Origin: an uncultured Gammaproteobacteria bacterium
GTDB lineage: Bacteria > Pseudomonadota > Gammaproteobacteria > Arenicellales > Poriferihabitantaceae
Reading direction: 5' to 3'
DNA length: 64,000 nucleotides
Assembly: GCA_947259885.1 (NCBI GenBank)
Contig: CAMYNW010000021.1
Span: 8,836 to 72,835, forward strand
Under the pieces are notes generated by a model, which worked only from the letters and a program-made list of their open reading frames with translations, searched no databases and was not told where the DNA came from. How positions within the stretch are numbered: the first letter of the stretch is position 1; each line of letters opens with the position of its first letter. This document shows positions 1 to 51,891 of the stretch, piece after piece. The position numbers were made by a program, and so were the translations under genes.

Positions 1-306
1 CAGTACGACACTGTTCTCGTCGATCAAACGAAAATCGACATTTATTCGGGGGAAAAATGTGTTCATATTCTTTTGTTCAAAATAGTGCGCAGTTTCATAG
101 ACGAGCCTATATTGCGGGCTATTTTCTGTGTCAATTGTAAAAGTAAAGTTTTCAATACAGCCTTCCTGATCGGTGACGCTTTCAGTAAGGAGATGCCAAT
201 CGTGATCGATACGGTTTCGAACCATAAGTTTAACCGGAAGATTGTGTGCGGGTTCACCACTAGTTGCATCGAGAACAAATACTACTAATCTACCCTCGGC
301 ATTCAA
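1..306 (-). CDS. Transthyretin-like (5-hydroxyisourate hydrolase family) protein. The 3' end is cut by the window edge and the catalytic residues appear substituted.
   Basis: This frame is absent from the supplied ORF track (TTG at 306-304, no ATG). My translation is LNAEGRLVVFVLDATSGEPAHNLPVKLMVRNRIDHDWHLLTESVTDQEGCIENFTFTIDTENSPQYRLVYETAHYFEQKNMNTFFPRINVDFRLIDENSVVL. It follows the HIUase/transthyretin pattern (xHVLDxxxGxPA, TNxDGR, YF..FFPxVxVxF). The TTG overlaps the stop of the upstream gene (TTGA). Confidence 0.55.
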   Translation of the reverse strand, partial: MNAEGRLVVFVLDATSGEPAHNLPVKLMVRNRIDHDWHLLTESVTDQEGCIENFTFTIDTENSPQYRLVYETAHYFEQKNMNTFFPRINVDFRLIDENSVVL

Positions 307-1487
307 TTCTTAACGCCCTTATCATTGACCCAGCATCTGATCTGGCGCCTTTCTTGTGGCGTCATTCCGGTCTTGTTATCTGGGGGCATTGTTTGTGTGG
401 TCACGCTTCTTTCCAGTATTCTGCTTCGCAAGGAGATTACCTGTTTTGGAGTGTCAAAGACGACTCCGTTAGGAGGGTTCGAGAATGATGGATCGCTTGG
501 TGTGGAAGAGTGGCATGAAGTACATCTACGCGACACCGTATCGTAAATTTGACTTATATCTATTGTCGCTTCGCATTCTTCCAGTTGGACCAAACCAGGT
601 TTGGAAAAAAATACGATAGAGATAAACAATGAAACTGAAACAACGAGGGGTAGGACTCCGGATTTCCCCTGCTGTATTTTGGTATGAACATGTTTGGCAA
701 AGCCGGCAGCGAGCACCGCCACTGGCACAATAACCCAGCTGTAGGGATGACTGTGTACCACAGGCAAATGAATGCTCAGCATGATAAAGAAAACCGGAAG
801 CGTCATGTAATGGTTATGATCTGAGCGGACTCCAGGGTGCGATTTGTATAGTGCATCCAGCGGATGTTTGTTTTCAATGGCATGTAATAGTGACTTATGC
901 CAGGGGATAATGATGAAAAACACATTGGCGGACATAATTGTGCCCATGATTGCGCCGATGTGTAAAACCGCTGCACGGCCTGTAAATATTGAGGAAAGTA
1001 AAAACCCAAGTAACGTCACCGCTAATATTCCCAACCCAGCAGACAAAGGCAGGTTCTCAACCAGTCGAGTCTTGCAGTAGAGGTTGTATAGTAACCACGC
1101 GAATACTAAAAACACGAGGCTGATGACGATTCCTGCGCCCGTCGAAATCCCGGTCATAGCTGGCTTGATTAATGCATTGGAGGGCTGGGAATAGTAAAGA
1201 ATGCTCAGCAGAATGAATCCGGATACCCATGTCAGATAGGCTTCATATTTAAACCAATGCAGTTCGTCAGGTAGCGTCTCAGGTGCTTGCTTATGTTTTT
1301 CAACATAATAAAAGTCCCCACCTTGTATGGTCCAGAAATTTCCCTCTATTTCTTTTCTCAGAAAACTCTTGTTGAATTTATTTTCCCAGGAGAATATATA
1401 AAACGACGTCCCAATCCATACTGCGGCAATAATCACATGCAGCCATCGCATGATGAGTGCTAGCCACTCTAGTTCATAAACGCCCAT
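303..1487 (-). CDS. PuuD-like integral membrane protein with a C-terminal cytochrome c domain (urate hydroxylase family)
   Basis: 394-aa ORF. The multi-TM N-terminal domain carries family-typical strings: EWLALIMRWLHVIIAAVWIGTSFY, LHWFKYEAYLTWVSGF, GRAAVLHIGAIMGTIMSANVFFIIIP, HNHYMTLPVFFIM. The C-terminal soluble part has one CxxCH haem motif (CTSCH). Confidence 0.7.
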   Translation of the reverse strand: MGVYELEWLALIMRWLHVIIAAVWIGTSFYIFSWENKFNKSFLRKEIEGNFWTIQGGDFYYVEKHKQAPETLPDELHWFKYEAYLTWVSGFILLSILYYSQPSNALIKPAMTGISTGAGIVISLVFLVFAWLLYNLYCKTRLVENLPLSAGLGILAVTLLGFLLSSIFTGRAAVLHIGAIMGTIMSANVFFIIIPWHKSLLHAIENKHPLDALYKSHPGVRSDHNHYMTLPVFFIMLSIHLPVVHSHPYSWVIVPVAVLAAGFAKHVHTKIQQGKSGVLPLVVSVSLFISIVFFSKPGLVQLEECEATIDISQIYDTVSRRCTSCHSSTPSDPSFSNPPNGVVFDTPKQVISLRSRILERSVTTQTMPPDNKTGMTPQERRQIRCWVNDKGVKN

Positions 1488-1765: not shown

Positions 1766-4700
1766 TCATACTAAGCCAAGTATCTCTTGGCCCTGTTTAA
1801 AGTATCTGGGATCAAAAATCCCTCGCTCTCCTCCCATTTTTTGCGCGGCTTCACGGAAGTCAGCGGCAGGATGTAGCGCAATGAAGGCGATATAATCACG
1901 AAAACTTTCTTCGTCCGCCGAAAAGATAGCAACGAGGATGCGGCGGTCTTCGGTAAACAGCTTAAATAATATATTCTCAGAACATTCAAAAAGTCGTGAC
2001 AGTGCTGGTGAGTCATTTAACAGCAGATTCCAGATCACATTACTATCGTAATTGACCAGAAGACGAAGCACGTCATCATTTTGTTTAAAGATTAATTGTA
2101 GTAACAAGGGATCAGATTCAAAAAGAGTTATAAGCACCGCATCCGTGTGAGCGAACAGGCTGCTCAATACGCCCTCACCATGGCTGAACAAGTTTTGTAA
2201 CACGCTGGACGGGGTAGAGAATATTGCATTGAATAGCAGAGGAGAACTTGAAAACACACTGCTTATTACAGAGTCTGGTGAAGCAAAAATAATATTCAGT
2301 GTTTTATCATCATGGGAAAAAAATGAGTGTAAAACAGAGGGGGGAAGTGATAGTAAATGCCAGGCGACATCGATATTGTGTTTCAGTAAATTTTCAAATA
2401 TCGTGGTCTCACGTTCGAATACCAGATCAATCATGTCAGGACGGATATCTACATACTTTCCGTAGTAGTGCACGAATGGCTGGCTTTGAAGTCCGAATGC
2501 CTCAATGGCGGCTCGGTCACGTCCGCTTAAAATTTCTGATGGCAAAATCGCATTTTCTTCTCCGGTGATCCGAGCCTGTAGCATCAATGCACGCACAACA
2601 CCCTCTATATCATCTAAGCTCTTATTAAGTGCATTTACTATTTCAGATAGTGCATTTGGTCCCCAGGAAAAAAAATCTTCAAGCAGCAGCTTGTCGCACT
2701 GAAACAGTTTTTCAAGTGCGTCAGGTGCACAGCTAAAAAGGAGCTCAAGAGATTGACCAGGATACGAGAACAGTTCCCACAACATTGTATTTGATGAAAG
2801 AAATAACTCCCGTAGGGTTTGTTCTGGTAACTGGAATATCAGAATTTGCACATCTGCATTGTGGGTAAACAGGTTTACTAAGACGGCGTCATGGCAATCA
2901 AACAGTCTGATTAGTACATGATCTGAATGCTGTAACATCTGATGCAGTGCTTCATCTGATGTGGAAAGCAGGCGACGTTGTGTATGCAGTGCAAGCCCAA
3001 AGAATGCTCGATGTACCAGCGGGTCATGCTGCACAAAAAGACAATGCAGTAATTGGTCTGGTTGCCAGAATAACTTACGCAATACATCATAAGGTAGTGA
3101 CAATACTTGAGCCAGTGTTGTGTTCGGCATATCAAAGAACTCTTGCAATACTGAATCAGAATGAGAAAAGATCAGATCCAGAAGATCAGCGTGTCCTGCT
3201 ACTTCGCGACGTATCGCATGCAATAAGATATTGGTTCCCTCAGAATCTCCTTTTGGCAATGGTGATTGATCAAGACGCAATCGATGAGCTGTTCCAGTTA
3301 TATTGGCACCTTCGCTACTCATCATGTTCCCTGCGGTCAGTTTTTCTGCCGGAGTGGTATAGAGCTGTGACAGGATTTGTTTGAACTCATCCTCGCCTCG
3401 TTCCAGAATGCTGTAAAGTCGATTATTGTCACAGGATATAAACAATGTAAGCGCCAAGCCGCCATCTTCTGGTGAGAAAATTTTTGACATCACTGATTCT
3501 GAGTGATTAAACAAATTCCATAACAAACTGTCTGAGAGAGAAAATAGCCAGTCCAACGTCTCTTCCTGCTGAACAAAAATGCGCTCAAGGACCAGATCGG
3601 AATGTGAGAAAATCTTTTCTATTGTAGTGTCATGATGATGAAAAACTTTAAGTAATAGCTTTTCCGAGCAAGAAAAGAGTTTTTCAGGAAGAAATCCAGA
3701 GCGTATAAATATTCGCTTGGTGACATATGACGGGTACATAAACATCCACCCCAGCAGGGTGTCACTCAAGGAAAAAAGATCTGTAAATACATCCTCATGA
3801 AGGCTAAATATTGCTGTTAGGGCATCAGGCGGTAAAGCCAGCATATCCGCCAAACTATCATCGTCAAGCACGTTGCATACTTGTTTGAGTCGATCCTGAC
3901 GTTGATACATATTTCTTATTAAAACATTATCAGTATTGGCTTTGAGTAGATAGTGAACCTTGAGCTGTTGCTGTTTTGTCGGCTCGGAAACTGATTGAAT
4001 TGATTCACGGATATTGAAAGGGATCGTGTTAGTTGCAGATGAAGGCGCATAATTATCCTCGCCCTCAAACATTGTGATTACGCTTCTTAACGATGTGGTT
4101 TCACCAGACCATGTTTCACTTTTATTTATCAGCATATTTAAAAAAATATTTAGCTCTTCAGTCTCTTTCGAAAACAACTTCTCTAGCACGTAATCATCTT
4201 GATTAAACAGTGCACTTAGTAACTCATCGGGTGAGCGAAAAAGATCGAGGAGAAACTTGTCTGGCTGTGAGAATAGATTGGTAAGATAAAAATTATCTGA
4301 ATGATTAAAGATCGACTGGATCACCTGACCATCATGAGAAAACAAATCAAACAGCGCTGTGTCAGAACCGCTGAATATTTTTTCGAACACCATGTCTGCA
4401 TGTCGAAATACTGAATCAAGCGTATCGCTTGAGTGAAATATTATTTGACGTAATAGCGTATCAGAATGGTCGAAAAAGCGATTTAGCGCAAAGTGCGATC
4501 GGCTAAACAGTGTTTCAATGACACGGGGCTCGCGTTGCAACAAACTGTCAAGAAAGGATTCAGAACACCAGAATACCTTACGTAATAAGTCCGGCGAGTG
4601 AGCAAAAAATCGATTTAATATCTTTTCATCAAGTGAAAACAAGGCTTCCAACACATTATCTGGATGGTTTGCGATAACATCAATTAATTGCGAGGTAGGA

Positions 4701-4861
4701 CGAGCGTATTTCCCGATAAAAGCAGTGAACACCCAGGAGCTGGACATGCGTTCATTGCTGCTTGGGACAGGAAACTGATTCATGTAATGCCGAAAACGAT
4801 CCAGCACAACGGGACGAACCAGACTCAGGTCATTGTTATTGTTGTCAAAACGCGTTGTCAT
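1766..4861 (-). CDS. 1031-aa protein made of four blocks of an 11-residue tandem repeat (consensus approximately S-x-[SD]-D-x-[LV]-L-x-x-[LI]-F). Function unknown.
   Basis: Long uninterrupted ORF with an ATG start. The repeats are visible in runs such as FFSHDDKTLNIIFASPDSVISSVFSSSPLLFNAIFSTPSSVLQNLFSHGEGVLSSLFAHTDAVLITLFESDPLLLQLIF, where the aromatic residue recurs every 11 residues. I see no signal peptide or TM segment. Confidence 0.8.
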   Translation of the reverse strand: MTTRFDNNNNDLSLVRPVVLDRFRHYMNQFPVPSSNERMSSSWVFTAFIGKYARPTSQLIDVIANHPDNVLEALFSLDEKILNRFFAHSPDLLRKVFWCSESFLDSLLQREPRVIETLFSRSHFALNRFFDHSDTLLRQIIFHSSDTLDSVFRHADMVFEKIFSGSDTALFDLFSHDGQVIQSIFNHSDNFYLTNLFSQPDKFLLDLFRSPDELLSALFNQDDYVLEKLFSKETEELNIFLNMLINKSETWSGETTSLRSVITMFEGEDNYAPSSATNTIPFNIRESIQSVSEPTKQQQLKVHYLLKANTDNVLIRNMYQRQDRLKQVCNVLDDDSLADMLALPPDALTAIFSLHEDVFTDLFSLSDTLLGWMFMYPSYVTKRIFIRSGFLPEKLFSCSEKLLLKVFHHHDTTIEKIFSHSDLVLERIFVQQEETLDWLFSLSDSLLWNLFNHSESVMSKIFSPEDGGLALTLFISCDNNRLYSILERGEDEFKQILSQLYTTPAEKLTAGNMMSSEGANITGTAHRLRLDQSPLPKGDSEGTNILLHAIRREVAGHADLLDLIFSHSDSVLQEFFDMPNTTLAQVLSLPYDVLRKLFWQPDQLLHCLFVQHDPLVHRAFFGLALHTQRRLLSTSDEALHQMLQHSDHVLIRLFDCHDAVLVNLFTHNADVQILIFQLPEQTLRELFLSSNTMLWELFSYPGQSLELLFSCAPDALEKLFQCDKLLLEDFFSWGPNALSEIVNALNKSLDDIEGVVRALMLQARITGEENAILPSEILSGRDRAAIEAFGLQSQPFVHYYGKYVDIRPDMIDLVFERETTIFENLLKHNIDVAWHLLSLPPSVLHSFFSHDDKTLNIIFASPDSVISSVFSSSPLLFNAIFSTPSSVLQNLFSHGEGVLSSLFAHTDAVLITLFESDPLLLQLIFKQNDDVLRLLVNYDSNVIWNLLLNDSPALSRLFECSENILFKLFTEDRRILVAIFSADEESFRDYIAFIALHPAADFREAAQKMGGERGIFDPRYFKQGQEILGLV

Positions 4862-5074
4862 AACAAAGTAAGCCTAAAGTTGATCAAGATCAAATACACT
4901 TTCTCTCGATTTGACAAATTAGGTGGCGAAGTTAAGTATTTTCTAATATACATTTAGTAAAACTTCGACAGGCAGTTATCAGAAAATTGCCAATCGAAAG
5001 TGACTATAAAATAGTATTGTGCTTAAAATTATTATAAGCAATTAGTTTAAAAAACTTCTTCAAATTATTGTAAG

Positions 5075-5099
5075 TGCAGGATGGTAAGTGATTCCTGCA
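5075..5099 (+). promoter_or_regulatory. Small hairpin in the 5' leader of the encapsulin gene
   Basis: TGCAGGA (5075-5081) and TCCTGCA (5093-5099) form a perfect 7-bp inverted repeat with an 11-nt loop. It lies about 30 nt upstream of the ATG at 5131. The SD GAGGAG is at 5119-5124. Confidence 0.25.
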
Positions 5100-5130
5100 A
5101 CCCTAACAACATAACCTTGAGGAGAAGTAC

Positions 5131-6108
5131 ATGGCTCAAAAACTCTTACCCAAGTCCAACGCGGTTGTACTTTCAAGTTCGCACAAGTCGCGCCCTTTTT
5201 GGGAAGGCCGTTCTCCACGATGGATCTGCCAAATGATGATGCAGCGCGCCTGCGTTCCGGTGACTGGTGGTATTTTTCGTTTAAACAAGGTAACTGAACC
5301 TTTTATCCCAATTCAGGTATCCGCAGGGTCGAACTTGATCAATCTTCCTGCCGAAAACCTGAATGTTATGCATTCGCACAATGAAAATACTACTTTATCA
5401 AATAGCTATGCTGCATATGATGAAGCACCGCGAGAAATTCATTTGCAACCTATTCAAACCGTCGTGAAGATGCATACCCGCATTCCAGCATTATATTCTA
5501 CCCATCATAATCAGCTCGAAATGCAGTTAAGTCTGTCTGCGGAATACATGTATGAGTCCAAGGAAAACCTGATCTACAATCATCCAGACTGGGGCTTGAT
5601 AAATAATGTTGCTCCGAAGTTGCAGATCAAAAGTGATGGTGGCCCAACTCCGGATTTACTTGACGACATGCTAAGCCGTGTCTGGAAGGTTCCTGATGTG
5701 TTTGCGATGCATCCAGAGGCTATTGCTTCGTTCAATCAGACTTGTAACAGTATGGGAATTAAGCTTGATACTCTCGAGTTTAATGGTGGTCATTTTGTAT
5801 GTTGGCGCGGTATTCCAATTTTACCGACCAATAAACTTTACCTGCATGATGGCGAAGGAAAGACTCTGCATGATCGTAATCCCGGCAAGTCAAAAACTGA
5901 CATATTGTTGTTACGCATGGGCGAGGACAAGCAGGGTGTTATCAGTCTGTATGCGGCGGGCACCGAAGGCAGTCCAAGATTTCCATTCATTACAGTTGAT
6001 TTCATGGGAATATCTGATGAATCGATCGCTTCCTATATAATGACAATGTACGTAGCGGTTGCTGTTCTGACGGCCGGTGCGCTTTGCAAGGCTGAGGTTG
6101 TCATTTAA
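5131..6108 (+). CDS. Family 2A encapsulin shell protein (SrpI-type, HK97-fold nanocompartment)
   Basis: 325 aa with a strong SD. Strings that match what I recall of SrpI-type shells: RSPRW, GIFRLNKV, VKMHTRIPALYS, WGLINNVAP, GGPTPDLLDDMLSRVWKVPDVFAMHPEAIASF, FVCWRGIPILPTNK, ILLLRMGEDKQGVISLY, VDFMGISDESIASYIMTMYVAVAVLT. There is no cNMP-binding insertion, hence 2A rather than 2B. Confidence 0.8.
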   Translation: MAQKLLPKSNAVVLSSSHKSRPFWEGRSPRWICQMMMQRACVPVTGGIFRLNKVTEPFIPIQVSAGSNLINLPAENLNVMHSHNENTTLSNSYAAYDEAPREIHLQPIQTVVKMHTRIPALYSTHHNQLEMQLSLSAEYMYESKENLIYNHPDWGLINNVAPKLQIKSDGGPTPDLLDDMLSRVWKVPDVFAMHPEAIASFNQTCNSMGIKLDTLEFNGGHFVCWRGIPILPTNKLYLHDGEGKTLHDRNPGKSKTDILLLRMGEDKQGVISLYAAGTEGSPRFPFITVDFMGISDESIASYIMTMYVAVAVLTAGALCKAEVVI

Positions 6109-6123
6109 GGTCCGGAGGTCCAT

Positions 6124-6966
6124 ATGAGTAATCCAACTACACCTGATGATGGATCGTATGCGAGCAACTCATTGACGTCTGGTGAGTATGTATATGCCCA
6201 TGCCGAGCCAGTAACTGGAGGATTCAGCTTGACGGAAGAGGGCGCAACTCCTGCATCATCGGGCCCTTCTACAGAGACAGACCCTGCCAATGAAGCCCAG
6301 GAAGAAGTACTTGAAACGGTAGATCCAGGATCTAAAGAGCACAGCGTGGCCGGTGGTGGAGAATCAATGGCTGAGGACTTGGGCACAATAGAGACCGAGG
6401 AAATTATGGATGAAATGGCGGTTGAAGCGTTTATCCCTTCTGTTCCAGCAGTTCCAGCTGACTTTGCCAGTTCGCCGTGGGCGGATCTGTCGTTTCTGGC
6501 AACGCCAGGACCGATGCCTATGCCCAGTCCAGAACTAGCTGAATCGACCCAACCACCACCGGCAGCTGCAGTATCACCAACAGCTGGATCGTCACCGGAT
6601 GTGCATCCGACTGAAATGCCGGAAACTCCTGTTACTACTGGCGTTTCCGAAATGGCAAGTGGTGAAGCGCAGGATGCACACAATCCAGCCGGTCCGGTTA
6701 ATGTCGAAATGCCCGCGCCTGCGGCAATTGAAACGCCACCGGCGCCGGTCAGCACGCCCCCGGCGCCAGCAGCGGCTGAACCGAATATAGCTGCTGGAGA
6801 GTTGCCTTCGGGCGCAGCCGCTCCAACTGGCGCTGCGGGAACGGCACCAGTAAATCTTGATTCACAAGACCCGGCGGCGATAGAGATGCAGATGCAAATG
6901 AGTGAAAATACTGCTCAGCACATGGCAAAAATTCTGCAGGATATTCTTCAAAGTGAATCACCTTGA
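6124..6966 (+). CDS. Acidic Pro/Ala/Glu/Thr/Ser-rich, predicted intrinsically disordered protein (280 aa) with a short helical-looking C-terminus
   Basis: GGAGG SD at 6114-6118, 5 nt before the ATG and 15 nt after the encapsulin stop. The composition is low-complexity (PAAIETPPAPVSTPPAPAAAEP...). The C-terminal segment AAIEMQMQMSENTAQHMAKILQDILQSESP is the only non-low-complexity part. The antisense 216-aa ORF is a GC-shadow. Confidence 0.7.
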   Translation: MSNPTTPDDGSYASNSLTSGEYVYAHAEPVTGGFSLTEEGATPASSGPSTETDPANEAQEEVLETVDPGSKEHSVAGGGESMAEDLGTIETEEIMDEMAVEAFIPSVPAVPADFASSPWADLSFLATPGPMPMPSPELAESTQPPPAAAVSPTAGSSPDVHPTEMPETPVTTGVSEMASGEAQDAHNPAGPVNVEMPAPAAIETPPAPVSTPPAPAAAEPNIAAGELPSGAAAPTGAAGTAPVNLDSQDPAAIEMQMQMSENTAQHMAKILQDILQSESP

Positions 6967-7095
6967 AACCAATAATCCAGATATGGGGGTTGATAGAATT
7001 AAGGAAGTTGATGGTTCTGTCTTAGGTGTAGTTTTAAACCTTAAAGGTGCTGGAAAATGGATACGACCATTACCAACTAGAGTGCGGTTTATTAA

Positions 7096-7554
7096 ATGAA
7101 TGACGCAATCGCCAGCGCTAATGGTCAAGTTGTGAGCAAGCTTGATCAGTCGGCCATGACAGTCAATCAGATATTCATCATTGGACTGCCAGTACTAGGG
7201 TTTATTTTTGACTCGCCGTGGCCGTTGATATTTACGGCGTCAGTTATGTTAATCGGACTTGTTATTCCGCAGCTTCGTTTGTTCAATCTTATCTATATGC
7301 ATGTGGTCAAGCCGCTCGGTTTACTGAAACCAAATGTCATTAAAGACGATCCGGCACCACATCGATTTGCGCATTTGTTAGGGGGCATATTTCTATTGAT
7401 CGCATGTGGCTTAATATTCCTCGATTACAGTGCATTAGGTTGGATATTCTGCTGGATCGTAGTTGGCCTCGCGCAATTGAATCTGCAGGCACATTTTTGT
7501 GTTGGTTGTTTCATGTATTTGCATTTAAGCAGGCTCATTTCAACCCGTAGCTGA
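7096..7554 (+). CDS. Small polytopic membrane protein, DUF4395-like
   Basis: 152 aa with about 4 hydrophobic segments and a C-terminal FCVGCFMY motif, as I recall for DUF4395. It lies 25 nt upstream of the Trx-TrxR fusion gene. Confidence 0.5.
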   Translation: MNDAIASANGQVVSKLDQSAMTVNQIFIIGLPVLGFIFDSPWPLIFTASVMLIGLVIPQLRLFNLIYMHVVKPLGLLKPNVIKDDPAPHRFAHLLGGIFLLIACGLIFLDYSALGWIFCWIVVGLAQLNLQAHFCVGCFMYLHLSRLISTRS

Positions 7555-7579
7555 CAAAAAATTACCATAAGGAAAGAAT

Positions 7580-9007
7580 ATGTTGTTCGATACGACACGA
7601 TTGTTGATTGCAATTGGTCTTCTGATTATCTTTACTACTGTAATTGGATTGTGGAACTGGGCGCATCTGCGAATTGTGCGCATACGCAGTCGTCATCGAA
7701 AGTGGCCGATGGAAGTTTGGAACGGTAAGGCAACCTTATTGTATTTCAGCACCAAGAATTGTGTCGTGTGTAAATATCAACAGGCCAAAGAGATTGAAAA
7801 AATACGCGAATTATTTTCGAAAGATTTGCTTGATATTAAAAAGCTTGATGCACTCGAACAACCAGAACTTGCGAAACTATTTGGCGTAATGAATGTCCCG
7901 ACCACCGTAATAATTGATGGTCAAGGTAATTTGCACGCATTTAACGCAAATCTGGCGAAGGTGAAGGAGCTCACGCAACAGATTAAGGGTAGCATTGGTG
8001 CGTGTGAGCCGGTGAGACAGAGCTCGATACTGGATCCGGATAAAACTGAAGAAGTAGTTATTGTGGGATCCGGTCCAGCAGGATGGACAGCTGCGATCTA
8101 TGCAGCAAGGGCTCAACTTGCACCATTGGTGTTTGTTGGCGTGGGTGACAAGTTCATGATTCCTGGTGGGCAATTAATGTGGACCACAGAAGTTGAAAAT
8201 TTTCCTGGTTGGCCTGAAGGAATCGAGGGGCCAGCGTTGATGGAGAAGCACCAGGAGCAGGCTATGCATTGGGGGGCGCGGGTTATGGAAACCGATATCG
8301 TTAATATCGATGCCAGTAAAAGGCCTTTCGAGCTTACCGACTCTGATGACAATCTAGTAAAAGCTCAGGCGGTCATAATCGCAACCGGAGCGCGTACTCG
8401 CTGGCTTGGCCTGGAAAACGAGGAGCGCCTGGCACGGAGTGGAGGCGGTGTATCTGCTTGCGCGACATGTGATGGACCAATGCCAATATTTCGTGATCAA
8501 GTAGTAGCGGTAATAGGCGGCGGTGATACTGCTCTTGAGGAAGCACTTCAACTCACAAACTTTGCCAGTCGGGTTCACATCATCAATATCACGCCAGAAC
8601 TTACTGCGAGTCAGGTAATGTGTGACCGCGCGCGCGATAATCAGAAAATTGAATTTCACTTCAACAAAACGGTTATTGATGTGATTGGTGAAGACAGAGT
8701 GGATGGATTGCGTATTCATGATGTCAGCGACAATACTGAATCAACTATGCCAGTGAAAGGATTGTTTGTGGCGATAGGGCATATTCCCAACACCGATTTT
8801 CTTAGGGATATCATGGAACTTGATGAGAATGGATATGTTGTCGTCAAGAAAGCGTTTAGGACCAATACAAGCGTGGATGGTATTTTTGCCGCAGGCGATG
8901 TTATAGACCCAAATTATCGCCAGGCAATAACATCTGCCGGTACTGGATGTATGGCGGCGATGGACGTTGAGCGTTGGTTACAACGTTCGCACGTCGCTTT
9001 GGTTTAA
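7580..9007 (+). CDS. Membrane-anchored thioredoxin-like domain fused to a low-Mr thioredoxin reductase
   Basis: 475 aa with an AAGGA SD. There is an N-terminal TM helix followed by a basic stretch (RIVRIRSRHRK). The Trx-fold segment has CVVC (7760-7771). The TrxB part has GSGPAGWTAAIYAAR (FAD), redox-active CATC (8459-8470), GGGDTALEEA, and the C-terminal GDV..YRQAITSAGTGCMAA. Confidence 0.85.
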   Translation: MLFDTTRLLIAIGLLIIFTTVIGLWNWAHLRIVRIRSRHRKWPMEVWNGKATLLYFSTKNCVVCKYQQAKEIEKIRELFSKDLLDIKKLDALEQPELAKLFGVMNVPTTVIIDGQGNLHAFNANLAKVKELTQQIKGSIGACEPVRQSSILDPDKTEEVVIVGSGPAGWTAAIYAARAQLAPLVFVGVGDKFMIPGGQLMWTTEVENFPGWPEGIEGPALMEKHQEQAMHWGARVMETDIVNIDASKRPFELTDSDDNLVKAQAVIIATGARTRWLGLENEERLARSGGGVSACATCDGPMPIFRDQVVAVIGGGDTALEEALQLTNFASRVHIINITPELTASQVMCDRARDNQKIEFHFNKTVIDVIGEDRVDGLRIHDVSDNTESTMPVKGLFVAIGHIPNTDFLRDIMELDENGYVVVKKAFRTNTSVDGIFAAGDVIDPNYRQAITSAGTGCMAAMDVERWLQRSHVALV

Positions 9008-9162: not shown

Positions 9163-10287
9163 TTATGCCGCGGGCTGGTGCTGCGTCACGCAGTGGACTG
9201 CTCCGCCTTCGGCAGTGAGTGTAACCACCGGAATCGGGACGATTTCCCGATCTGGAAAACAATCGCCCAGAGTTTCGATTGACTGGCTATCTTGGGCGTT
9301 GCCAAATGCGGGCATCAACACGAGGTTGTTAGTGACTAAATAATTTAAATAGCTGGCGTCGGTAAAATGACTGCCAGCACCAAGTGCGGGATCGTGTCGG
9401 TCACCTATTGTAAATACACCGCCTTTGGGCAGGTTTAATGGAATTAATGTCAGTGGACTGCCGTCTTCATCGGTCGAACATTCCAGTTCCTCACGATGTT
9501 TGACAAGGTATGGGTAGCGAGGATCACTGTTGTCGTCTGTCCAGGCATATAGCACTTTATTTTTACCCACAAACCGCGCGGCAATATCGATGTGATAATC
9601 GGTGCCATCACCCAGTTCTTGTTCACAGACATCCGGCGGTGCACCGGATAGCCAGATAACATGATTTACGCCTAGGAATTCACTCAGCACTTTCTCAATA
9701 TCCATTTGATTCAATCCCGGATTTCGATTGTCATTGATGATGGAACTGCGTGTCGCCATCAGGCTGCCCGTTCCGTTGACCTCTATAGCGCCACCTTCAG
9801 ATACCAGGGGAGATACAAAAACCGGCAGATCTAAAATATCTGCGACGGTTTGAGGGATGTGTTTTTCCGCTTTGCCCCAATCCGAATACGAACCCCAACC
9901 ATTAAAATTCCAATCAGTGATCGCCAGGTTTCCCTGGCCATCGATGACAAAAATCGGGCCGGAATCACGATGCCATACATCAACGGTTTGCGTGACATAA
10001 ACGTAGATCTTGTCCATGTTGAAGCCGTAATAGTCCATCGCATCCAGAATATGCTTCCGGTGTACCTCACTCTGCGCCAGGATCTGCACGTCAACGTGCT
10101 GGTGGATTTCCCTAGACATGAGCAGCCAGGTCTTCTCCATCTTCATTTGATAGGAAAAATCCGTGCAATCGGTGGCTTTGGGGTATTTGCCAGGCCATTG
10201 CAGCCAAACTGCGGTTTGCGCCTCCCATTCCGCCGGCATTCGATAGCCGAGTTCTCTTGGCGTTGCGCTTTCGACAATGTTTGCCAT
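9163..10287 (-). CDS. aguA: Agmatine deiminase
   Basis: 374 aa. N-terminal YRMPAEWE..WLQWP, and C-terminal GGAVHCVTQHQP containing the catalytic Cys typical of agmatine deiminase. It starts 3 nt after the aguB stop. Confidence 0.9.
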   Translation of the reverse strand: MANIVESATPRELGYRMPAEWEAQTAVWLQWPGKYPKATDCTDFSYQMKMEKTWLLMSREIHQHVDVQILAQSEVHRKHILDAMDYYGFNMDKIYVYVTQTVDVWHRDSGPIFVIDGQGNLAITDWNFNGWGSYSDWGKAEKHIPQTVADILDLPVFVSPLVSEGGAIEVNGTGSLMATRSSIINDNRNPGLNQMDIEKVLSEFLGVNHVIWLSGAPPDVCEQELGDGTDYHIDIAARFVGKNKVLYAWTDDNSDPRYPYLVKHREELECSTDEDGSPLTLIPLNLPKGGVFTIGDRHDPALGAGSHFTDASYLNYLVTNNLVLMPAFGNAQDSQSIETLGDCFPDREIVPIPVVTLTAEGGAVHCVTQHQPAA

Positions 10288-10290
10288 GGT

Positions 10291-11181
10291 TTATCTGGTT
10301 TTGACCATAATATCGCCGTCCAGCGACATGATCGGACCGTAGTGCTCCGGCCGACGATCCCTGAACAAACACCAGCGATCTCGATGTTCTGCAATTGCAT
10401 CCAGATCGAATTGATGGGCCAAGACCATGGAATCATTGCGATTGGCTTCCGATACTTTTTGTCCTAAGTGATTACATATGAAGGAGGAACCGTAAAATGT
10501 GAGATGTTGATCTCCTTTGGAAGAGGATTCTGTTCCGATCCGGTTTGATGCCACTACCGGCATGATATTCGCGGCCGCATGACCCTGCATAACGGCTTGC
10601 CAGTGAGGTGCTGAGTCATGTTCTATTTCTAATTCTGAGCCTATTGCGGTGGGGTAAAGCAGTACTTCCGCGCCTAAGAGCGCCATACATCGGGCGGTTT
10701 CCGGAAACCATTGGTCCCAGCATATGCCCAATCCCACTTTACCGTAACGTGTATTCCATACCTTAAAGCCGGTATTGCCGGGAGAGAAATACTGTTTCTC
10801 CTGATAGCCGACATCGTTTGGAATATGCGTCTTGCGGTAGACGCCCAGAATCGTTCCGTCGGCATCAATCATCGCCACCGAGTTGAAATAAACTTTTCCC
10901 GCTCTCTCAAACCAGCTTACCGGCAGTACCATTTGCAGTTCCTCTGCAAGTTTTGAAAACCTCTGAATGGTTGGATTCGCATCTAATGTGCTTGCCAGCG
11001 TTAAATGTTTGGTATCCTGTTCAATGCAAAAATAGGGCGTTTCAAACAGTTCCTGAATAAGGGTGATTTGGGCACCCTGGGATGCGGCTTCACGCACAAG
11101 TTGCTCGGCTCGGTCCACATTGTCCTGAATGTTCCAGTCGCAATGCATTTGTGTGGCAGCAAGGGTTACCAGTCTAGTCAT
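10291..11181 (-). CDS. aguB: N-carbamoylputrescine amidase (CN-hydrolase family)
   Basis: 296 aa with nitrilase-superfamily strings: LIQELFETPYFC, YRKTHIP, GLGICWDQWFPE (catalytic Cys). Forms an operon with aguA. Confidence 0.9.
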   Translation of the reverse strand: MTRLVTLAATQMHCDWNIQDNVDRAEQLVREAASQGAQITLIQELFETPYFCIEQDTKHLTLASTLDANPTIQRFSKLAEELQMVLPVSWFERAGKVYFNSVAMIDADGTILGVYRKTHIPNDVGYQEKQYFSPGNTGFKVWNTRYGKVGLGICWDQWFPETARCMALLGAEVLLYPTAIGSELEIEHDSAPHWQAVMQGHAAANIMPVVASNRIGTESSSKGDQHLTFYGSSFICNHLGQKVSEANRNDSMVLAHQFDLDAIAEHRDRWCLFRDRRPEHYGPIMSLDGDIMVKTR

Positions 11182-11308: not shown

Positions 11309-12096
11309 TCTGTCTCCCGTCTTATACACGCGACCTTCTGAATCAGGGACTTCAGGTAATTGATCCGCACCTACAAAGCTTCGCTCAGTCTCTTCGTCCC
11401 TATTCCAGTAACCGGGGCTAAGTCCAATACCAGCAATATACAGCTCTCCTTCAACACCTATAGGTGTGAGATAGCCCAGCGGGTCAAGAACCTAGTGTCG
11501 ATAGTTAGCTATTGGCTTACCGATTGGCGCTGATGTCATATGCTCAAGCAGGTCGACCGCAGTGGAAATAATCGTAGTTTCGGTGGGGCCATAGCTATTT
11601 AGCAGTCTGACTTTCCCTTTTGTCGCGGCATGCCAGAGTTTCAGATACTCTGACTTCACAGCTTCTCCGCTAATCATTAGGGTATGTACACTTGGCGCAA
11701 GTGGCTGCGCATCGAGTCGCTCCGTTAAAACGCTGAAAAATGCGGTAGGCAAACTAAGGCGCGAAATCTCCATGTCGATAATACGCTCGAGCAGCCTGTC
11801 CGGATCGATCATATCTTCAGTCCGCAGTACGAGCGTCGCGCCTGATCCCAGCGTCACAAAAATATCCTCTACGGAGAAGTCGAAGGCCAGGGATGCGAAT
11901 TGAAGATGCCGATCACTCGGTTGTATCCCGCTGACATCGCCAAAACCGTGGACGTAATTGGACAGGCTTTGATGTTTAATGGGTACACCTTTGGGTACCC
12001 CCGTACTCCCAGATGTATACATGATGTAAGCAAGCTGTTGTGGGTGAACCTCTACAGATGGATTCTGTGTTGAGCAAGAATCAATTATATCGCCTG
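11309..12096 (-). pseudogene. Relic of an NRPS/AMP-binding adenylation domain, truncated at both ends and carrying an internal in-frame TAG
   Basis: Core motifs appear in order: LAYIMYTSGSTGVPKG (A3), SAFDFSVEDIF, NSYGPTETT (A5), IGKPIANYRH-TAG(11492-11494)-VLDPLGYLTPIGVEGELYIAGIGLSPGYWNRDEETERSF (A6), RVYKTGDRM (A7). There is no start codon (upstream stop at 12097-12099), and similarity stops after TGD. Confidence 0.75.
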
Positions 12097-18547: not shown

Positions 18548-18601
18548 ATGGCCGATGGCATCCGCCTGGGTGAGCTGCAAATCTACGTGACCACACTATG
18601 A
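18548..18601 (+). other. 17-codon upstream ORF ([17 protein letters not shown]) overlapping the glgC start
   Basis: GGGAGG at 18534-18539, 8 nt before the ATG at 18548. Its TGA (18599-18601) overlaps the glgC ATG (18598-18600). glgC itself has no recognisable SD. Confidence 0.35.
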
Positions 18602-19872
18602 ATACTCAGAAAAATATCCGCTTTGTCAGTCGTCTTACGCGACAGACCCTGGCCCTGGTGCTTGCCGGAGGCCGCGGCTCTCGCCTTTACGAACTGACCG
18701 AATGGCGTGCCAAACCAGCGGTACCTTTCGGGGGCAAATTCCGCATTATCGACTTCCCCCTTTCGAACTGCATTAACACCGGTATCCGCCGCATTGGTGT
18801 GTTAACCCAATACAAGGCGCATTCGCTGATTCGCCACTTGGTGCGTGGCTGGACCCGTTTCGATAGTGAACTCGACGAGTTTGTGGAAATTCTTCCCGCC
18901 TCACAGCGTGCCGGTGGCGAGTGGTACCAGGGCACTGCTGATGCGGTTTATCAAAACCTTGATATTACGCGCACACACAAACCCGAATACGTGCTGATCT
19001 TATCAGGCGACCATATTTATAAAATGGACTATGGCGACCTGATTGCCAGGCATGTTGAAACCCAAGCCGACATGACGATCGCCTGTCTCGAAGTCCCGAT
19101 CGAAGAAGCGGCCGGCTCATTCGGCGTAATGACGGTCGATGAATCCGGTCGAATCGTTGAATTCAATGAAAAACCGGCCAACCCGGCGCCCATACCGGGC
19201 CAACCGGGACTCTGCCTGGCTTCGATGGGTAATTATCTGTTTAACACCGAGTTTCTTTACGAGCAATTAATCAAAGATGCAGATGAGCCTAGGTCCTCGC
19301 ACGATTTCGGCAAGGACATCATCCCGTCGATTATCAAAAACTATCGTATATATGCGTACCCGTTCCGCGACATGGACACCGGCGAACGCGCCTACTGGCG
19401 TGACGTTGGCACGCTGGATGCCTTTTGGGAAGCCAACATGGAACTCGTCAATGTCACCCCTGAATTGAACCTTTATGACCAGAACTGGCCGATTCTGACG
19501 CACCAGGCGCAGATGCCGCCGGCCAAGTTCGTGTTTGACCGCGACGACCGTCGTGGTCTGGCGATTGACTCGATGGTCTCGGGCGGATGTGTGATTTCTG
19601 GTTCGCTGGTCAAACGATCGTTGCTATTTTCCAACGTCAGGATCCATTCCTATGCTGAAATAATAGATAGTGTCATCTTGCCCGATGTCGAAATCGGTCG
19701 TAACGCCCGCATCAATAAAGTTATCATCGATAGCGGATGTAAAATTGATGAAGGCATGGTGATCGGTGAAGACCATGAGCAGGATAAGCAACGTGGTTTT
19801 CGAGTTACCGAAAAAGGCGTGGTGCTGGTGACGCCCGATATGCTGCACCAGACAATCCACATGCGCAGGTAA
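18598..19872 (+). CDS. glgC: Glucose-1-phosphate adenylyltransferase
   Basis: [41 protein letters not shown]; 424 aa, a typical length. Confidence 0.95.
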
Positions 19873-20002
19873 TCTGAATAGTGATGAATCGATCAAGAAT
19901 TGCCGCCGACCCATTGACTGGGCAATGGTGGGATAACTGCAAGATCGAGCTCCTCGATATAGAGCCTTACACCTGTCACAGCAGTCCGAGTGTGGTGACC
20001 TG

Positions 20003-21562
20003 ATGACTCATATCCTGATGATCGCCGCGGAAAATGGCACTTTACCGGGCGGCAAGGTAGGCGGTATCGGCGACGTCGTGCGCGAAGTTCCGGTGGCGCT
20101 GGCGCAACGCAATTGCACTGTTTCTGTGGTCACCCCGGCTTACGGTATTTTTGGCGAGTTACCTGGCGCAACCGAATTGCAGATCCTAAAGGTGAGGTTT
20201 GGCGGCCGTATAGAGTCACTCAAAGTCTACCAACTGGACGGGTTCGGTGCAGACATGGTTCGGCATTATGTGCTTGAGCATCCTTTGTTCAGCAGCTGTG
20301 GCAAAGGTCGGATTTACTGCGACGATCCACCCTCGCAACCTTTTAAAACAGATGCCGGTAAGTTTGCACTATTTTGCGCAGCGGTTGCTGTGGCTATAAA
20401 CAAAGGTCTGTTCGGTGATCTTGACGTGCTACACCTGCACGACTGGCATGCGGCTCTGATATTAATTCTGCGTCGTTATGACCCAAGCTATCGTTCCCTG
20501 CAGGCACTGCGCTGCGTCTACAGTATCCATAACCTGGCCGTCCAGGGCGTCCGACCATTTGCCCACGCGGACTCGTCGCTCGAGAAATGGTATCCGGACA
20601 TGGTTTACGAGCGTAAACAACTCGCCGATCCTCGTTGGCCCGACTGTATTAATCCGACGGCAAGCGCAATTCGCCTGGCCGATGCTGTGCACACGGTATC
20701 GCCAAGTTACGCTAAAGAAATCCTGCTTCCGGGGAGCCCCGAGGCCGGTATTCATGGTGGTGAAGGTCTCGACCATGATCTGCGTGCCGCCAGCGACGAG
20801 AAACGCCTGTTCGGTATCCTCAATGGTTGCGATTACTCGCCAAATTCGGCTCCCGCAGCTGCTGACTGGCCTGCATTATTGCAGCAGATGCGTCGGCTCA
20901 TACCGCTATGGGCCAGCCGCAATCCAACACTAGCGAGTACGCATTTCATCGCCCACCAGTCACTTAGCCAGCTCACCGATCAACGACCAAAAATGCTGCT
21001 CACCAGCGTCGGCCGTGTAACCGATCAAAAGGTAGGTTTGATGCGCCAGACCACAAGTTCGGGAGTGCCGGCCCTGCATGCTGCACTGGAATTACTGGAT
21101 GACGACGGCCTGCTGCTCATGGTTGGGACAGGCGATCCGGACTATGAGCAATTTTTGTGTGAAACCGCTGCTATCTATCGCAACTTTATTTACCTATGCG
21201 GTTTTTCCGAAGCACTGGCCCAGGCTCTTTACCAACAGGGCGATTTGTTCTTAATGCCCAGTTCTTTCGAACCCTGCGGTATCAGCCAGATGCTGGCGCT
21301 ACGTGAGGGTCAGCCTTGTCTGGTCCACCGCGTTGGTGGACTCCGCGATACGGTCAAGCATAAGAGAACGGGGTTCGTATTCAGCGGCAAAAATCCAACC
21401 GAGCGGGCCGATGCAATGGTTGCTGAAGTGAAGCGCGCGGTTAAACAGTTCGATAAAAAATTCAGAAAGTGGCAGACAATGCGTAAAGCGGCAGCGGCGG
21501 CAAGATTTGAATGGTCCGACAGTATTGATGCCTATATAAAGCTTCTTTACCAGAAATCATGA
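20003..21562 (+). CDS. glgA: Glycogen synthase (GT5, ADP-glucose type)
   Basis: N-terminal MIAAENGTLPGGKVGGIGDVV (KxGGL-like), and C-terminal PSSFEPCGISQMLALREG. 519 aa. Confidence 0.9.
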   Translation: MTHILMIAAENGTLPGGKVGGIGDVVREVPVALAQRNCTVSVVTPAYGIFGELPGATELQILKVRFGGRIESLKVYQLDGFGADMVRHYVLEHPLFSSCGKGRIYCDDPPSQPFKTDAGKFALFCAAVAVAINKGLFGDLDVLHLHDWHAALILILRRYDPSYRSLQALRCVYSIHNLAVQGVRPFAHADSSLEKWYPDMVYERKQLADPRWPDCINPTASAIRLADAVHTVSPSYAKEILLPGSPEAGIHGGEGLDHDLRAASDEKRLFGILNGCDYSPNSAPAAADWPALLQQMRRLIPLWASRNPTLASTHFIAHQSLSQLTDQRPKMLLTSVGRVTDQKVGLMRQTTSSGVPALHAALELLDDDGLLLMVGTGDPDYEQFLCETAAIYRNFIYLCGFSEALAQALYQQGDLFLMPSSFEPCGISQMLALREGQPCLVHRVGGLRDTVKHKRTGFVFSGKNPTERADAMVAEVKRAVKQFDKKFRKWQTMRKAAAAARFEWSDSIDAYIKLLYQKS

Positions 21563-21574
21563 TTTGCTAATACC

Positions 21575-21862
21575 ATGGCAACTCTGGAATCCTATTACGA
21601 GTCCATTGCACGCGGGCGGCATGGTGACCCATTCAAGATTCTGGGCCCTCACGGCGCGACCAAAAACTGGACGGTGCGGAGCTTTCAACCGCAGGCCCAA
21701 GCAGTGGAAGTCCTCGACGCCAACGATGAATTACTCACGAATATGCGACCGTTGCATGGTGACGGCCTGTTCGAAGCGCGTCTGCCGTTGCCCGTTGCTT
21801 CCATATCATCGACGATCCTTATCGATTTGCCTCACCTTTCGGGGATCTCGATCGTCACCTGA
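21575..21862 (+). pseudogene. glgB: glgB N-terminal fragment, separated from the catalytic part by a frameshift
   Basis: GRHGDPFKILGPHGATKNWTVRSFQPQAQAVEVL...[10 protein letters not shown] matches the GlgB N-terminus. The reading frame then decays ([24 protein letters not shown]-stop). Confidence 0.7.
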
Positions 21863-28333: not shown

Positions 28334-28426
28334 TGTCCTGATCACATGATTCACACGACACAATGACGACTTCAAAATCTCGGTGTAGCATAGATTTACC
28401 TGTGCTAAAAACAAAATAGATTTTCG

Positions 28427-39250: not shown

Positions 39251-39426
39251 GACGAATTACGCAGAACTGGAATCGCGCGTATTAAGACTCCGATGGATAA
39301 TAATAAATTAACAAATGTCTCTCGCAATATTTAACGCACTTTGGCCTCAACCGTTCTGACGGGATACACTTAGAGTACCTATATATTTGTGTGATCAGCG
39401 TACAAAGCATCCAATTACCCTTACAG

Positions 39427-51712: not shown

Positions 51713-51891
51713 TGTATTGATCCTCGTTTCTGAATTTTCCGGCTCATGAGAAGCAGGTTCTTGAGCGGTTTCAGGGCTAATGGATTGGTGTGGCGGGTCC
51801 GGTGGTAGCACCGTTTGGAACCAAAGCTTCAACCTGCTGAACAGGGAGGCGATAAATGTGAGTATAGGTGCTTCAGCCACGAAAGGAAATG

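Follow-up and report, generated by a model that had tools for sequence, protein, structure and literature searches.

A Family 2 encapsulin shell gene accompanied by a small low-complexity protein and a membrane thioredoxin module rather than by a cargo enzyme

What does an encapsulin compartment hold when the gene next to its shell gene does not encode an enzyme? To our knowledge, every Family 2 encapsulin system described so far is defined by the enzyme that it packages (i.e., a desulfurase, terpene cyclase, polyprenyl transferase or xylulose kinase). We analysed 64 kb of DNA from an uncultured gammaproteobacterium (contig CAMYNW010000021.1; this whole stretch is referred to here as the window) that contains a shell gene of this type (5131-6108, plus strand, 325 amino acids). 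A sequence-only reading of this DNA had delineated five open reading frames (ORFs), the shell gene and four neighbours, all of which are present at the coordinates given there, and had proposed that no known cargo enzyme is encoded near the shell. We found nothing to contradict this within the window: a tblastn search with the desulfurase CyD of S. elongatus gave no match, and Pfam scans of 20 further large ORFs gave no desulfurase, kinase, terpene cyclase, peroxidase or ferritin. Our data come close to showing that the core of the system consists instead of four genes, which encode the shell, a small disordered protein, a DUF4395 protein and a membrane-anchored thioredoxin (Trx).

Identity of the shell protein

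We found that the shell protein matches the SrpI-like Pfam family PF19307 with 208.7 bits (gathering cut-off 22.8, E 9.5e-62); its alignments with two Family 2A shells of known structure, 8t6r (E 3e-56) and 6x8m (E 4e-54), span the whole protein at approximately 36% identity. An AlphaFold2 model was built on 18 sequences of its clade, with a mean predicted local distance difference test score (pLDDT) of 75.9 and a predicted TM-score of 0.74. The top Foldseek matches of this model were the Family 2A shells 8t6r, 8wol and 6x8m (E approximately 4e-29, TM-scores 0.70 to 0.82), followed at lower ranks by Family 2B shells and then by HK97-type phage capsids at approximately 1e-8. By profile as well as by structure, the protein matches encapsulin and HK97 models, as had been anticipated, and it is a genuine SrpI-like HK97-fold protein. 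Given this fold, its subunits most likely assemble by themselves into an icosahedral compartment.

The sequence-only reading had also assigned the shell to Family 2A, and here only the fold stood. On the NCBIfam equivalog model of Family 2A (NF041162) the shell scores 263.1 bits, where the cut-off is 380, and on the Family 2B model 243.2 bits, where the cut-off is 400; neither is reached. Clade shells recovered by homology search are 46 to 87% identical to the window shell, while canonical Family 2A shells are 35 to 37% identical. In a neighbour-joining tree, which is a distance tree without support values, the clade proteins (P0001-P0027) fall on a branch apart from Families 2A and 2B. De-duplication at 95% shell identity gives 20 non-redundant shells, referred to here as the clade. 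Since the shell stays below the Family 2A cut-off and belongs to a separate clade, the label "Family 2A" is too narrow; judged by its sequence, the shell is a distinct, previously undescribed branch of the Family 2 encapsulins.

Compared with Family 2A shells, clade shells carry a cysteine pair and two insertions and lack a C-terminal extension. The cysteine pair (W31-I-C33...C41; 5221-5253, plus strand) lies in the region of the N-helix and N-arm, and the N-arm of SrpI interlocks with the adjacent subunit (PMC8049743). Of the 20 non-redundant clade shells, 19 have the pattern P(R/K)W(I)C-x7-9-C(I/V)PV; it is missing from all 24 canonical Family 2A and 2B shells, which have L or V at the position of C33 and W at that of C41. 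Alignments with SrpI and Family 2B shells place the first insertion, approximately 20 amino acids long, in the E-loop (residues 56-77; 5296-5361, plus strand), with low pLDDT at residues 65-77. This is the site at which Family 2B shells carry their cNMP-binding domain. The clade insertion is not such a domain, however, and the shell gave no match to PF00027; in this it agrees with Family 2A, which has no cNMP domain either. The second insertion, in the A-domain (residues 239-254 in the alignments; 5845-5892, plus strand), varies in length from 13 to 36 amino acids across the clade and has low pLDDT at residues 243-246 of the window shell. Clade shells stop right behind the last strand, whereas SrpI and its relatives are 10 to 15 amino acids longer at the C-terminus, and in SrpI this extension builds the five-fold "spike" (PMC8049743).

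The patch that faces the cargo is shared with Family 2A. SrpI F262 and Y273 adjoin the cargo density (PMC8049743), and their equivalents in the window shell lie in a DFMG...ASY patch (5998-6036, plus strand). Across the clade, the phenylalanine is kept in 24 of 26 shells and the tyrosine in 26 of 26, and conservation is equal in canonical shells.

In one clade locus (L030), tblastn found two paralogous shell genes (L030:1284-2339 and L030:3714-4739; 351 and 341 amino acids, approximately 67% identical) that flank the genes for the small protein, DUF4395 and Trx. Many Family 2B operons likewise have two shell genes, for two-component shells (9bje/9bix), which hints that the L030 pair could form a shell of that kind. 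Otherwise clade loci differ from those of Family 2B, whose cargo is a terpene cyclase, polyprenyl transferase or xylulose kinase, in having no terpenoid or kinase genes.

The conserved neighbourhood and the protein in the cargo position

Loci were pooled from the contigs of clade shells, a scan of one genome per species and a metagenome scan, and were classified by tblastn with reference proteins; 17 of the 20 non-redundant clade loci had enough flanking DNA. We found that a small unannotated low-complexity ORF directly follows the shell gene at all 17 loci. DUF4395 is also present at all 17 (16 downstream, one divergent upstream), membrane-anchored Trx at 16 and thioredoxin reductase (TrxR) at eight, where it is fused to Trx in seven and a separate gene in L031. 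A protein made of 11-residue repeats, discussed below, is encoded at six. The desulfurase reference proteins gave no match at any of the 17, so that the arrangement named in advance as speaking against an enzyme-less locus, a related shell beside a standard desulfurase, was not seen; all canonical Family 2A loci of the same scan with enough downstream sequence have a desulfurase directly after the shell. Co-occurrence of shell and neighbours thus extends across the clade for the small ORF, DUF4395 and Trx and is limited to one subclade for the repeat protein. The hosts of the clade comprise Thiobacillus, Sulfuricellaceae, Sulfuricaulis, unclassified Beta- and Gammaproteobacteria, Acidimicrobiia and one metagenome-assembled genome (MAG) labelled Heimdallarchaeota.

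In that MAG (Candidatus Heimdallarchaeota; L007/L008/L016/L040), DUF4395 is divergent from the shell and has a C-terminal extension of approximately 130 amino acids. A membrane Fer4_5 protein is encoded nearby, but no Trx was found within 10 kb. A search for DUF4395 context in plasmids by tblastn gave no match.

Could the shell and the DUF4395/Trx genes be chance neighbours or independent operons, with the Trx module serving general membrane thiol homeostasis? The 129-nucleotide gap between the small gene and DUF4395 in the window would fit this, as would the MAG labelled Heimdallarchaeota with its divergent DUF4395 and no Trx nearby. Yet the linkage holds at 16 to 17 of the 17 non-redundant loci across distant lineages, and in Acidimicrobiia the called gene coordinates overlap both for shell and small protein and for DUF4395 and Trx. 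Furthermore, neither DUF4395 nor Trx occurs at any canonical Family 2A locus of the same scan, and the module stays intact while the flanks beyond it vary from genome to genome. We consider chance neighbourhood very improbable.

Ratios of nonsynonymous to synonymous substitution rates (dN/dS), calculated against the near relative L010, are 0.05 for the shell, 0.06 for DUF4395, 0.08 for the Trx-TrxR fusion, 0.18 for the repeat protein and 0.36 for the small protein (0.48 in its N part, 0.26 in its C part). With values of 0.05 to 0.36, all five genes evolve under purifying selection. The GC content of the module is 0.442, compared to 0.501 for the remainder of the window. Elsewhere, no 3-kb window is as low as the repeat gene, which has 0.418 (minimum 0.432, standard deviation 0.032), and the spacer that separates this gene from the shell gene (4862-5130) is at 0.31. 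This agrees with the AT-richness of the repeat gene and the intergenic spacers seen earlier; the accessory island suggested on that ground is consistent with base composition and with the varying flanks, the two observations that bear on it, and stays a suggestion.

A decaying prophage, or the remnant of a capsid-forming mobile element, would also account for an HK97 fold in a module whose AT content exceeds that of the remaining window. However, the ORF list and Pfam scans of the window contain no portal, terminase, protease or integrase near the shell, the shell model matches encapsulin structures far better than phage capsids (approximately 4e-29 against approximately 1e-8), the shell is under strong constraint (dN/dS 0.05) and the gene set is kept across phyla. 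With no phage genes present, we rejected this explanation as barely conceivable.

The small acidic protein of the window (6124-6966, plus strand, 280 amino acids) starts 15 nucleotides past the shell stop codon, and GGAGG stands 7 nucleotides upstream of its ATG, in line with the strong Shine-Dalgarno (SD) sequence described earlier. Its composition is 14% proline, 16% alanine and 19% serine plus threonine, with a net charge of -41 and no cysteine, and it has no Pfam or NCBIfam match. An antisense ORF inside its gene (6105-6755, minus strand, 216 amino acids) is not a gene, since it is broken by three stops in L010.

We found 24 homologues of this protein, which form a proteobacterial family. 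All are stand-alone proteins of 231 to 337 amino acids with no Pfam domain, and none is fused to a SufS-type desulfurase. Their acidic N-part is variable while the C-terminal 170 residues are strikingly conserved and built of short motifs (SPxxDLSFLxxPG, PMPSPxLAExTQP, SSPDVHPTEMPxTPV, AIETPPAPV, GEPN and GTAP), ending in a helix of the form MQxQMSxNxAxxMAxxLQDxL. In the window protein, the motif SPWADLSFLATPG (6472-6510, plus strand) contains the (D)-L-x-F-L core that is common to the small proteins of all lineages, and the C-terminal amphipathic helix is MQMQMSENTAQHMAKILQDILQ (6886-6951, plus strand). The small proteins of other lineages (128 to 204 amino acids) are overall not alignable with these; the (D)-L-x-F-L core and a C-terminal amphipathic helix are nevertheless kept. 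In one homologue (P0059, 337 amino acids) the SPWxxLSFL...PG...TQ module is present twice, as would be expected for an independent binding module.

In Family 2A, the loading domain of the desulfurase is long and disordered, and its contacts to non-polar patches inside the shell are discontinuous, made by a few short motifs (PMC8049743; PMC10836720; PMC11659603). We extracted seven canonical loading domains and ran their hallmark motifs, LARLANEFFS and (S)PYYFL, as position-specific scoring matrices (PSSMs) against shuffled controls. The LARLANEFFS matrix matched the small proteins of L030 (MCRLANAMMQ, p<0.0002), L007 (p=0.0018) and the window (p=0.025), and its best match fell within the C-terminal helix in nine of 14 small proteins, which makes this helix a candidate counterpart of LARLANEFFS. 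Matches to the YYFL-type matrix tended to fall on DLSFL and were not significant. These results come from a 10-mer matrix, the refined version of an earlier 13-mer test that was mostly non-significant. BLAST of the small protein against S. elongatus CyD gave low-complexity alignments only. Taken as motifs, these data are suggestive of homology between the small protein and the desulfurase loading domain and do not establish it. What our data do indicate firmly is that, at clade loci, the cargo slot is always held by a non-enzymatic, motif-bearing, low-complexity protein.

A different explanation is that the true cargo enzyme has its gene in another part of the genome, and that the small protein is a phage-like assembly factor or scaffold, or an adaptor that recruits the distant cargo. 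HK97-fold shells frequently rely on scaffolding proteins, the conserved N-terminal MSNPxxPS...SGEYxY of the proteobacterial small proteins could bind a client, and the DNA covered amounts to 64 kb from this genome and to short contigs from metagenomes. Against this stand the lack of a conserved enzyme candidate near the shell at 17 of 17 loci from several phyla, the stand-alone state of all 24 small-protein homologues and the position of the small gene, which is exactly that of the cargo genes at canonical loci. On balance we regard a distant cargo as rather unlikely.

Which known system is most similar? Phage scaffolding proteins (e.g., P22 gp8) are small, non-enzymatic and encoded beside the capsid gene; they are mostly helical and exit the capsid. 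They and the clade small protein both end in a conserved helix with the potential to bind the coat protein, but the small protein is proline-rich and acidic and is accompanied by no other phage genes. CsoS2 of alpha-carboxysomes, a scaffold that attaches to the inside of its shell by repeated short motifs, is likewise a non-enzymatic disordered protein with linkers between the motifs and is encoded with that shell, and the analogy to CsoS2 has been drawn before for the desulfurase loading domain (PMC10836720). CsoS2 differs, however, in that it has no sequence relation to the small protein, belongs to a bacterial microcompartment shell rather than an HK97-type one, and works with a second client, Rubisco, of a kind that is not known here.

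By analogy, the system appears to work most like the Family 2A desulfurase encapsulins (SrpI/CyD of Synechococcus elongatus, 8t6r of Acinetobacter baumannii, mycobacterial Mmp1/Enc-CD). Both have the same shell fold and Pfam family, the F262/Y273 equivalents, a link to sulfur metabolism and, directly downstream of the shell, a Pro/Ala/Ser-rich polypeptide with short hydrophobic motifs. Clade loci differ from Family 2A, apart from the approximately 36% shell identity and separate branch, in having DUF4395 and membrane Trx (with or without TrxR) and no desulfurase, rhodanese or serine acetyltransferase at the locus. Because the shell stays under the equivalog cut-off and ends without the extension, and because no enzyme cargo is encoded at the locus, we class the system within Family 2 and not within Family 2A.

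The thioredoxin module and the repeat protein

The DUF4395 protein (7096-7554, plus strand, 152 amino acids) matches PF14340 with 95.9 bits (cut-off 24.5, E 3.1e-27). Two of its motifs are invariant, PHRF in a basic loop (7357-7368, plus strand) and CxGC right behind the last transmembrane (TM) helix (7498-7509, plus strand). The next gene (7580-9007, plus strand, 475 amino acids) encodes a fusion of a TM anchor, placed by hydropathy at 7601-7660 (plus strand), a thioredoxin-fold domain with CVVC (7760-7771, plus strand) and a cis-Pro motif VPT, and a TrxR part with CATC (residues 294-297; 8459-8470, plus strand). The TrxR part scores 357 bits on TIGR01292 (cut-off 343.45). The Trx part scores 23.3 bits on TIGR01068, where the cut-off is 96.8, and has CVVC instead of WCGPC; the membrane Trx proteins of the clade gave no match above cut-off to curated thioredoxin families. 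Weak Pfam and PDB matches and the cis-Pro motif point to the thioredoxin fold, and throughout the clade the Trx proteins have an invariant CxxC and a cis-Pro motif. The Pfam and NCBIfam matches, the TM helix and the CxxC motifs together substantiate the DUF4395-like membrane protein and the membrane-anchored Trx-TrxR fusion of the sequence-only reading. In clade Trx proteins, the N-terminal TM helix is followed by a cluster of arginines and lysines, which by the positive-inside rule implies that the catalytic part would be cytoplasmic.

At L031, whose shell is 70% identical to that of the window and which has no repeat protein, Trx (144 amino acids) and TrxR (319 amino acids) are separate adjacent genes (L031:7721-9127), and this pair looks like the unfused counterpart of the window fusion. 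Since the two are separate neighbours in L031 and fused in the subclade of the window, Trx and TrxR probably work together. The unfused TrxR of L031 retains HRRGELRAS, whereas the TrxR part of the window fusion has INITPELTAS in place of HRRxxxR (8582-8611, plus strand). With the E. coli TrxR as reference for HRRxxxR, this suggests that a change of electron donor may have accompanied the fusion.

AhpF, NTRC and the Mycobacterium leprae TrxR-Trx likewise combine a Trx fold and a low-Mr TrxR in one chain with CxxC in both parts, and AhpF has the same Trx-first order. The window protein differs from these fusions in having one Trx fold, an N-terminal membrane anchor, CVVC and INITPELTAS for HRRxxxR. 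AhpF itself has two Trx folds, and on its model TIGR03140 the window fusion scores 220.5 bits (cut-off 502.9).

The tie to thiol and sulfur chemistry that had been proposed for the locus was strengthened by the shell cysteine pair and by the genes found just upstream of the shell in some lineages. DsrE-like genes occur there in three clusters (two above the Pfam cut-off, the third a precomputed weak match), and other lineages have FdhD or an ArsR-rhodanese regulator. The host names Thiobacillus, Sulfuricellaceae and Sulfuricaulis also point to sulfur. The DsrE-like proteins at L004:9584-9907 and L045:74-520 share an ACG(S/T)CL motif, and that of L004 weakly resembles the DsrE-like part of YedF, a protein of selenium metabolism (E 0.0027, well below cut-off).

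The fifth gene of the locus (1766-4861, minus strand) is transcribed divergently from the shell and encodes an acidic protein of 1031 amino acids with no TM helix or signal peptide. Its description as a protein of 11-residue repeats is correct: the hydrophobic autocorrelation is 0.41 at lag 11, and the 11-mers form four arrays (residues 42-252, 320-507, 543-764 and 794-999). An AlphaFold2 model has one short helix per 11-mer at low confidence (pLDDT 47.7), so that its secondary structure alone is usable. A word-based search gave six full-length homologues. When 1.84 billion representatives were searched exhaustively with a profile, one full-length 50% cluster and fragments were obtained; weak profile matches that might have been distant relatives proved to be unrelated tandem repeats. 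L001 and L004 encode large proteins upstream of their shells; these, too, are unrelated to the repeat protein, and from reading their sequences we presume that they are a polynucleotide phosphorylase and a PhnE-like permease.

The repeat gene adjoins the shell in all six clusters of the shell subclade with at least 82% identity, and only there; this subclade is of the Thiobacillus/Sulfuricellaceae/Sulfuricaulis type. Such strict adjacency and divergent transcription might mean that proteobacterial compartments package the repeat protein as cargo, or use it inside as a multivalent scaffold, with the small protein as its loading adaptor. It would be in keeping with this that both contigs reached from repeat-protein homologues also carry an adjoining shell, that the family is essentially confined to the shell context and that it has neither TM helix nor signal peptide. 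On the other side, the repeat gene is absent from 11 of 17 clusters, including L031, and is therefore dispensable for the core system; the structure model is unreliable; and the loading-domain motif shows no enrichment in the 11-mers. We had tried them as a LARLANEFFS-like binding array and rejected this, since they showed no excess over the sequence shuffled globally or reversed, or over repeats with permuted columns. We consider the repeat protein as cargo unlikely, slightly more so than an enzyme encoded elsewhere. Because it is confined to one proteobacterial subclade (six of 17 clusters), the repeat protein is a lineage-specific accessory (possibly a client, organiser or tether) and not part of the core.

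Between the divergent repeat and shell genes, GAGGAG precedes the shell start, and the corresponding regions of relatives have little in common beyond the SD region. Promoter and terminator scans of the window, this region included, gave no matches above shuffled expectation, and Rfam gave no match in the window.

Several features of the window lie outside the module. A membrane protein with a Urate_ox_N domain (PuuD-like; 303-1487, minus strand) ends in CxxCH (CTSCH), which suggests a fused cytochrome c domain. Polyamine genes are found at 9163-11181 (agmatine deiminase and an N-carbamoylputrescine amidase-like protein) and at 51892-54678 (an Orn/Lys/Arg decarboxylase). By eye, an ORF of 176 amino acids (11492-12022, minus strand) has the YTSGSTGxPKG core motif of adenylate-forming enzymes (nonribosomal peptide synthetase A-domains); it is far below the length of a full domain and thus probably a gene fragment or pseudogene. 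Pfam identifies a complete glycogen gene cluster at 18598-30634 (plus strand), with a GlgC-like nucleotidyl transferase, a GT5 starch synthase-type protein, branching enzyme, phosphorylase, debranching-type amylase and 4-alpha-glucanotransferase. Two further ORFs, 39391-40743 (plus strand, 450 amino acids) and 50252-51880 (minus strand, 542 amino acids), have no Pfam match at E<=1e-5.

A possible working of the system and its meaning

We hypothesize, and hold at roughly an even chance, that this is an enzyme-less Family 2 system in which the small protein is the partner in the lumen and the Trx chain acts on shell cysteines or sulfane sulfur. The small protein would be produced together with the shell, given its start 15 nucleotides downstream in the window and its overlap with the shell stop codon in Acidimicrobiia, and would line or fill the lumen with no enzyme attached, taking the place of the desulfurase. 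DLSFL and the C-terminal amphipathic helix may bind the conserved F/Y patch that the desulfurase loading domain uses. The cysteine pair in the N-arm of the clade shell could form or carry a disulfide or persulfide. Electrons would pass from NAD(P)H to TrxR (fused here) and on to a membrane-tethered cytoplasmic Trx, with the CxGC of DUF4395 at the membrane, and this chain might reduce the shell cysteines, the sulfane sulfur held by the compartment, or both, and so open or empty it. In sulfur-oxidising Beta- and Gammaproteobacteria, the system would have gained the giant 11-mer repeat protein as an accessory (organiser or client). The overall role would then be the handling of sulfane sulfur and thiol redox and not cysteine desulfuration, and the system would serve the storage, sequestration or controlled release of sulfur or other thiol-reactive content.

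Several points weigh against this reading. The packaging of the small protein is deduced from its gene slot and motifs. Its disorder, taken over from the sequence-only reading, agrees with the low-complexity composition and follows from composition alone, with a borderline charge-hydropathy value that barely passes to the disordered side. Compared with Family 2A, the match to the loading motifs is weak; the LARLANEFFS matrix is not significant in the other 11 small proteins (p 0.06-0.84), and the order of the motifs is reversed relative to CyD. The proteobacterial small proteins have no cysteine and therefore could not carry a persulfide themselves. The fused TrxRs (window, L011, L013 and L014) have INITPELTAS and not the NADPH motif HRRxxxR, which binds the 2'-phosphate, so that their electron donor is uncertain, and we know of no function for the DUF4395 family. 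Sulfur-carrier genes are present at a minority of clade loci, and the rhodanese of L030 has a signal peptide. Finally, only 64 kb of the genome is covered, which leaves room for a cargo enzyme encoded elsewhere. The earlier proposal of a new non-enzymatic or scaffold-like cargo, or of a split loading adaptor, fares accordingly in part: the checks that were run did not refute it, the repeat protein is no general cargo, and for the small protein packaging is a deduction.

A more specific version of the enzyme-less reading, which we regard as doubtful, is an enzyme-free, redox-gated compartment. Its N-arm cysteine pair would be reducible by Trx, its lumen lined by the disordered protein, and a private Trx/TrxR/DUF4395 chain would load, lock or empty it. 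Sulfane sulfur would be the likely content, with the repeat protein acting as a multivalent organiser in sulfur-oxidising Proteobacteria.

Full-text literature searches on DUF4395, on encapsulins together with thioredoxin reductase or sulfur oxidisers, and on enzyme-less or orphan encapsulins gave no description of such a system. Family 2A desulfurase shells store elemental sulfur, and the route of its remobilisation is unknown; its release has been left open because the pores do not let cellular thiols through (PMC10836720; PMC11659603). In the clade described here, the loading enzyme is gone while a reductase chain and shell cysteines have been added, so that release and gating become testable in a system of four genes, which could show how encapsulin compartments open or empty. 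With the clade, DUF4395 and a new family of 11-residue repeats are placed in a functional context for the first time. If the redox-gated reading is true, this would be the first encapsulin with a non-enzyme cargo and a shell controlled by thiol redox. Furthermore, our data extend encapsulins to chemolithotrophic sulfur oxidisers, in which the handling of zero-valent sulfur in the cytoplasm is poorly understood.

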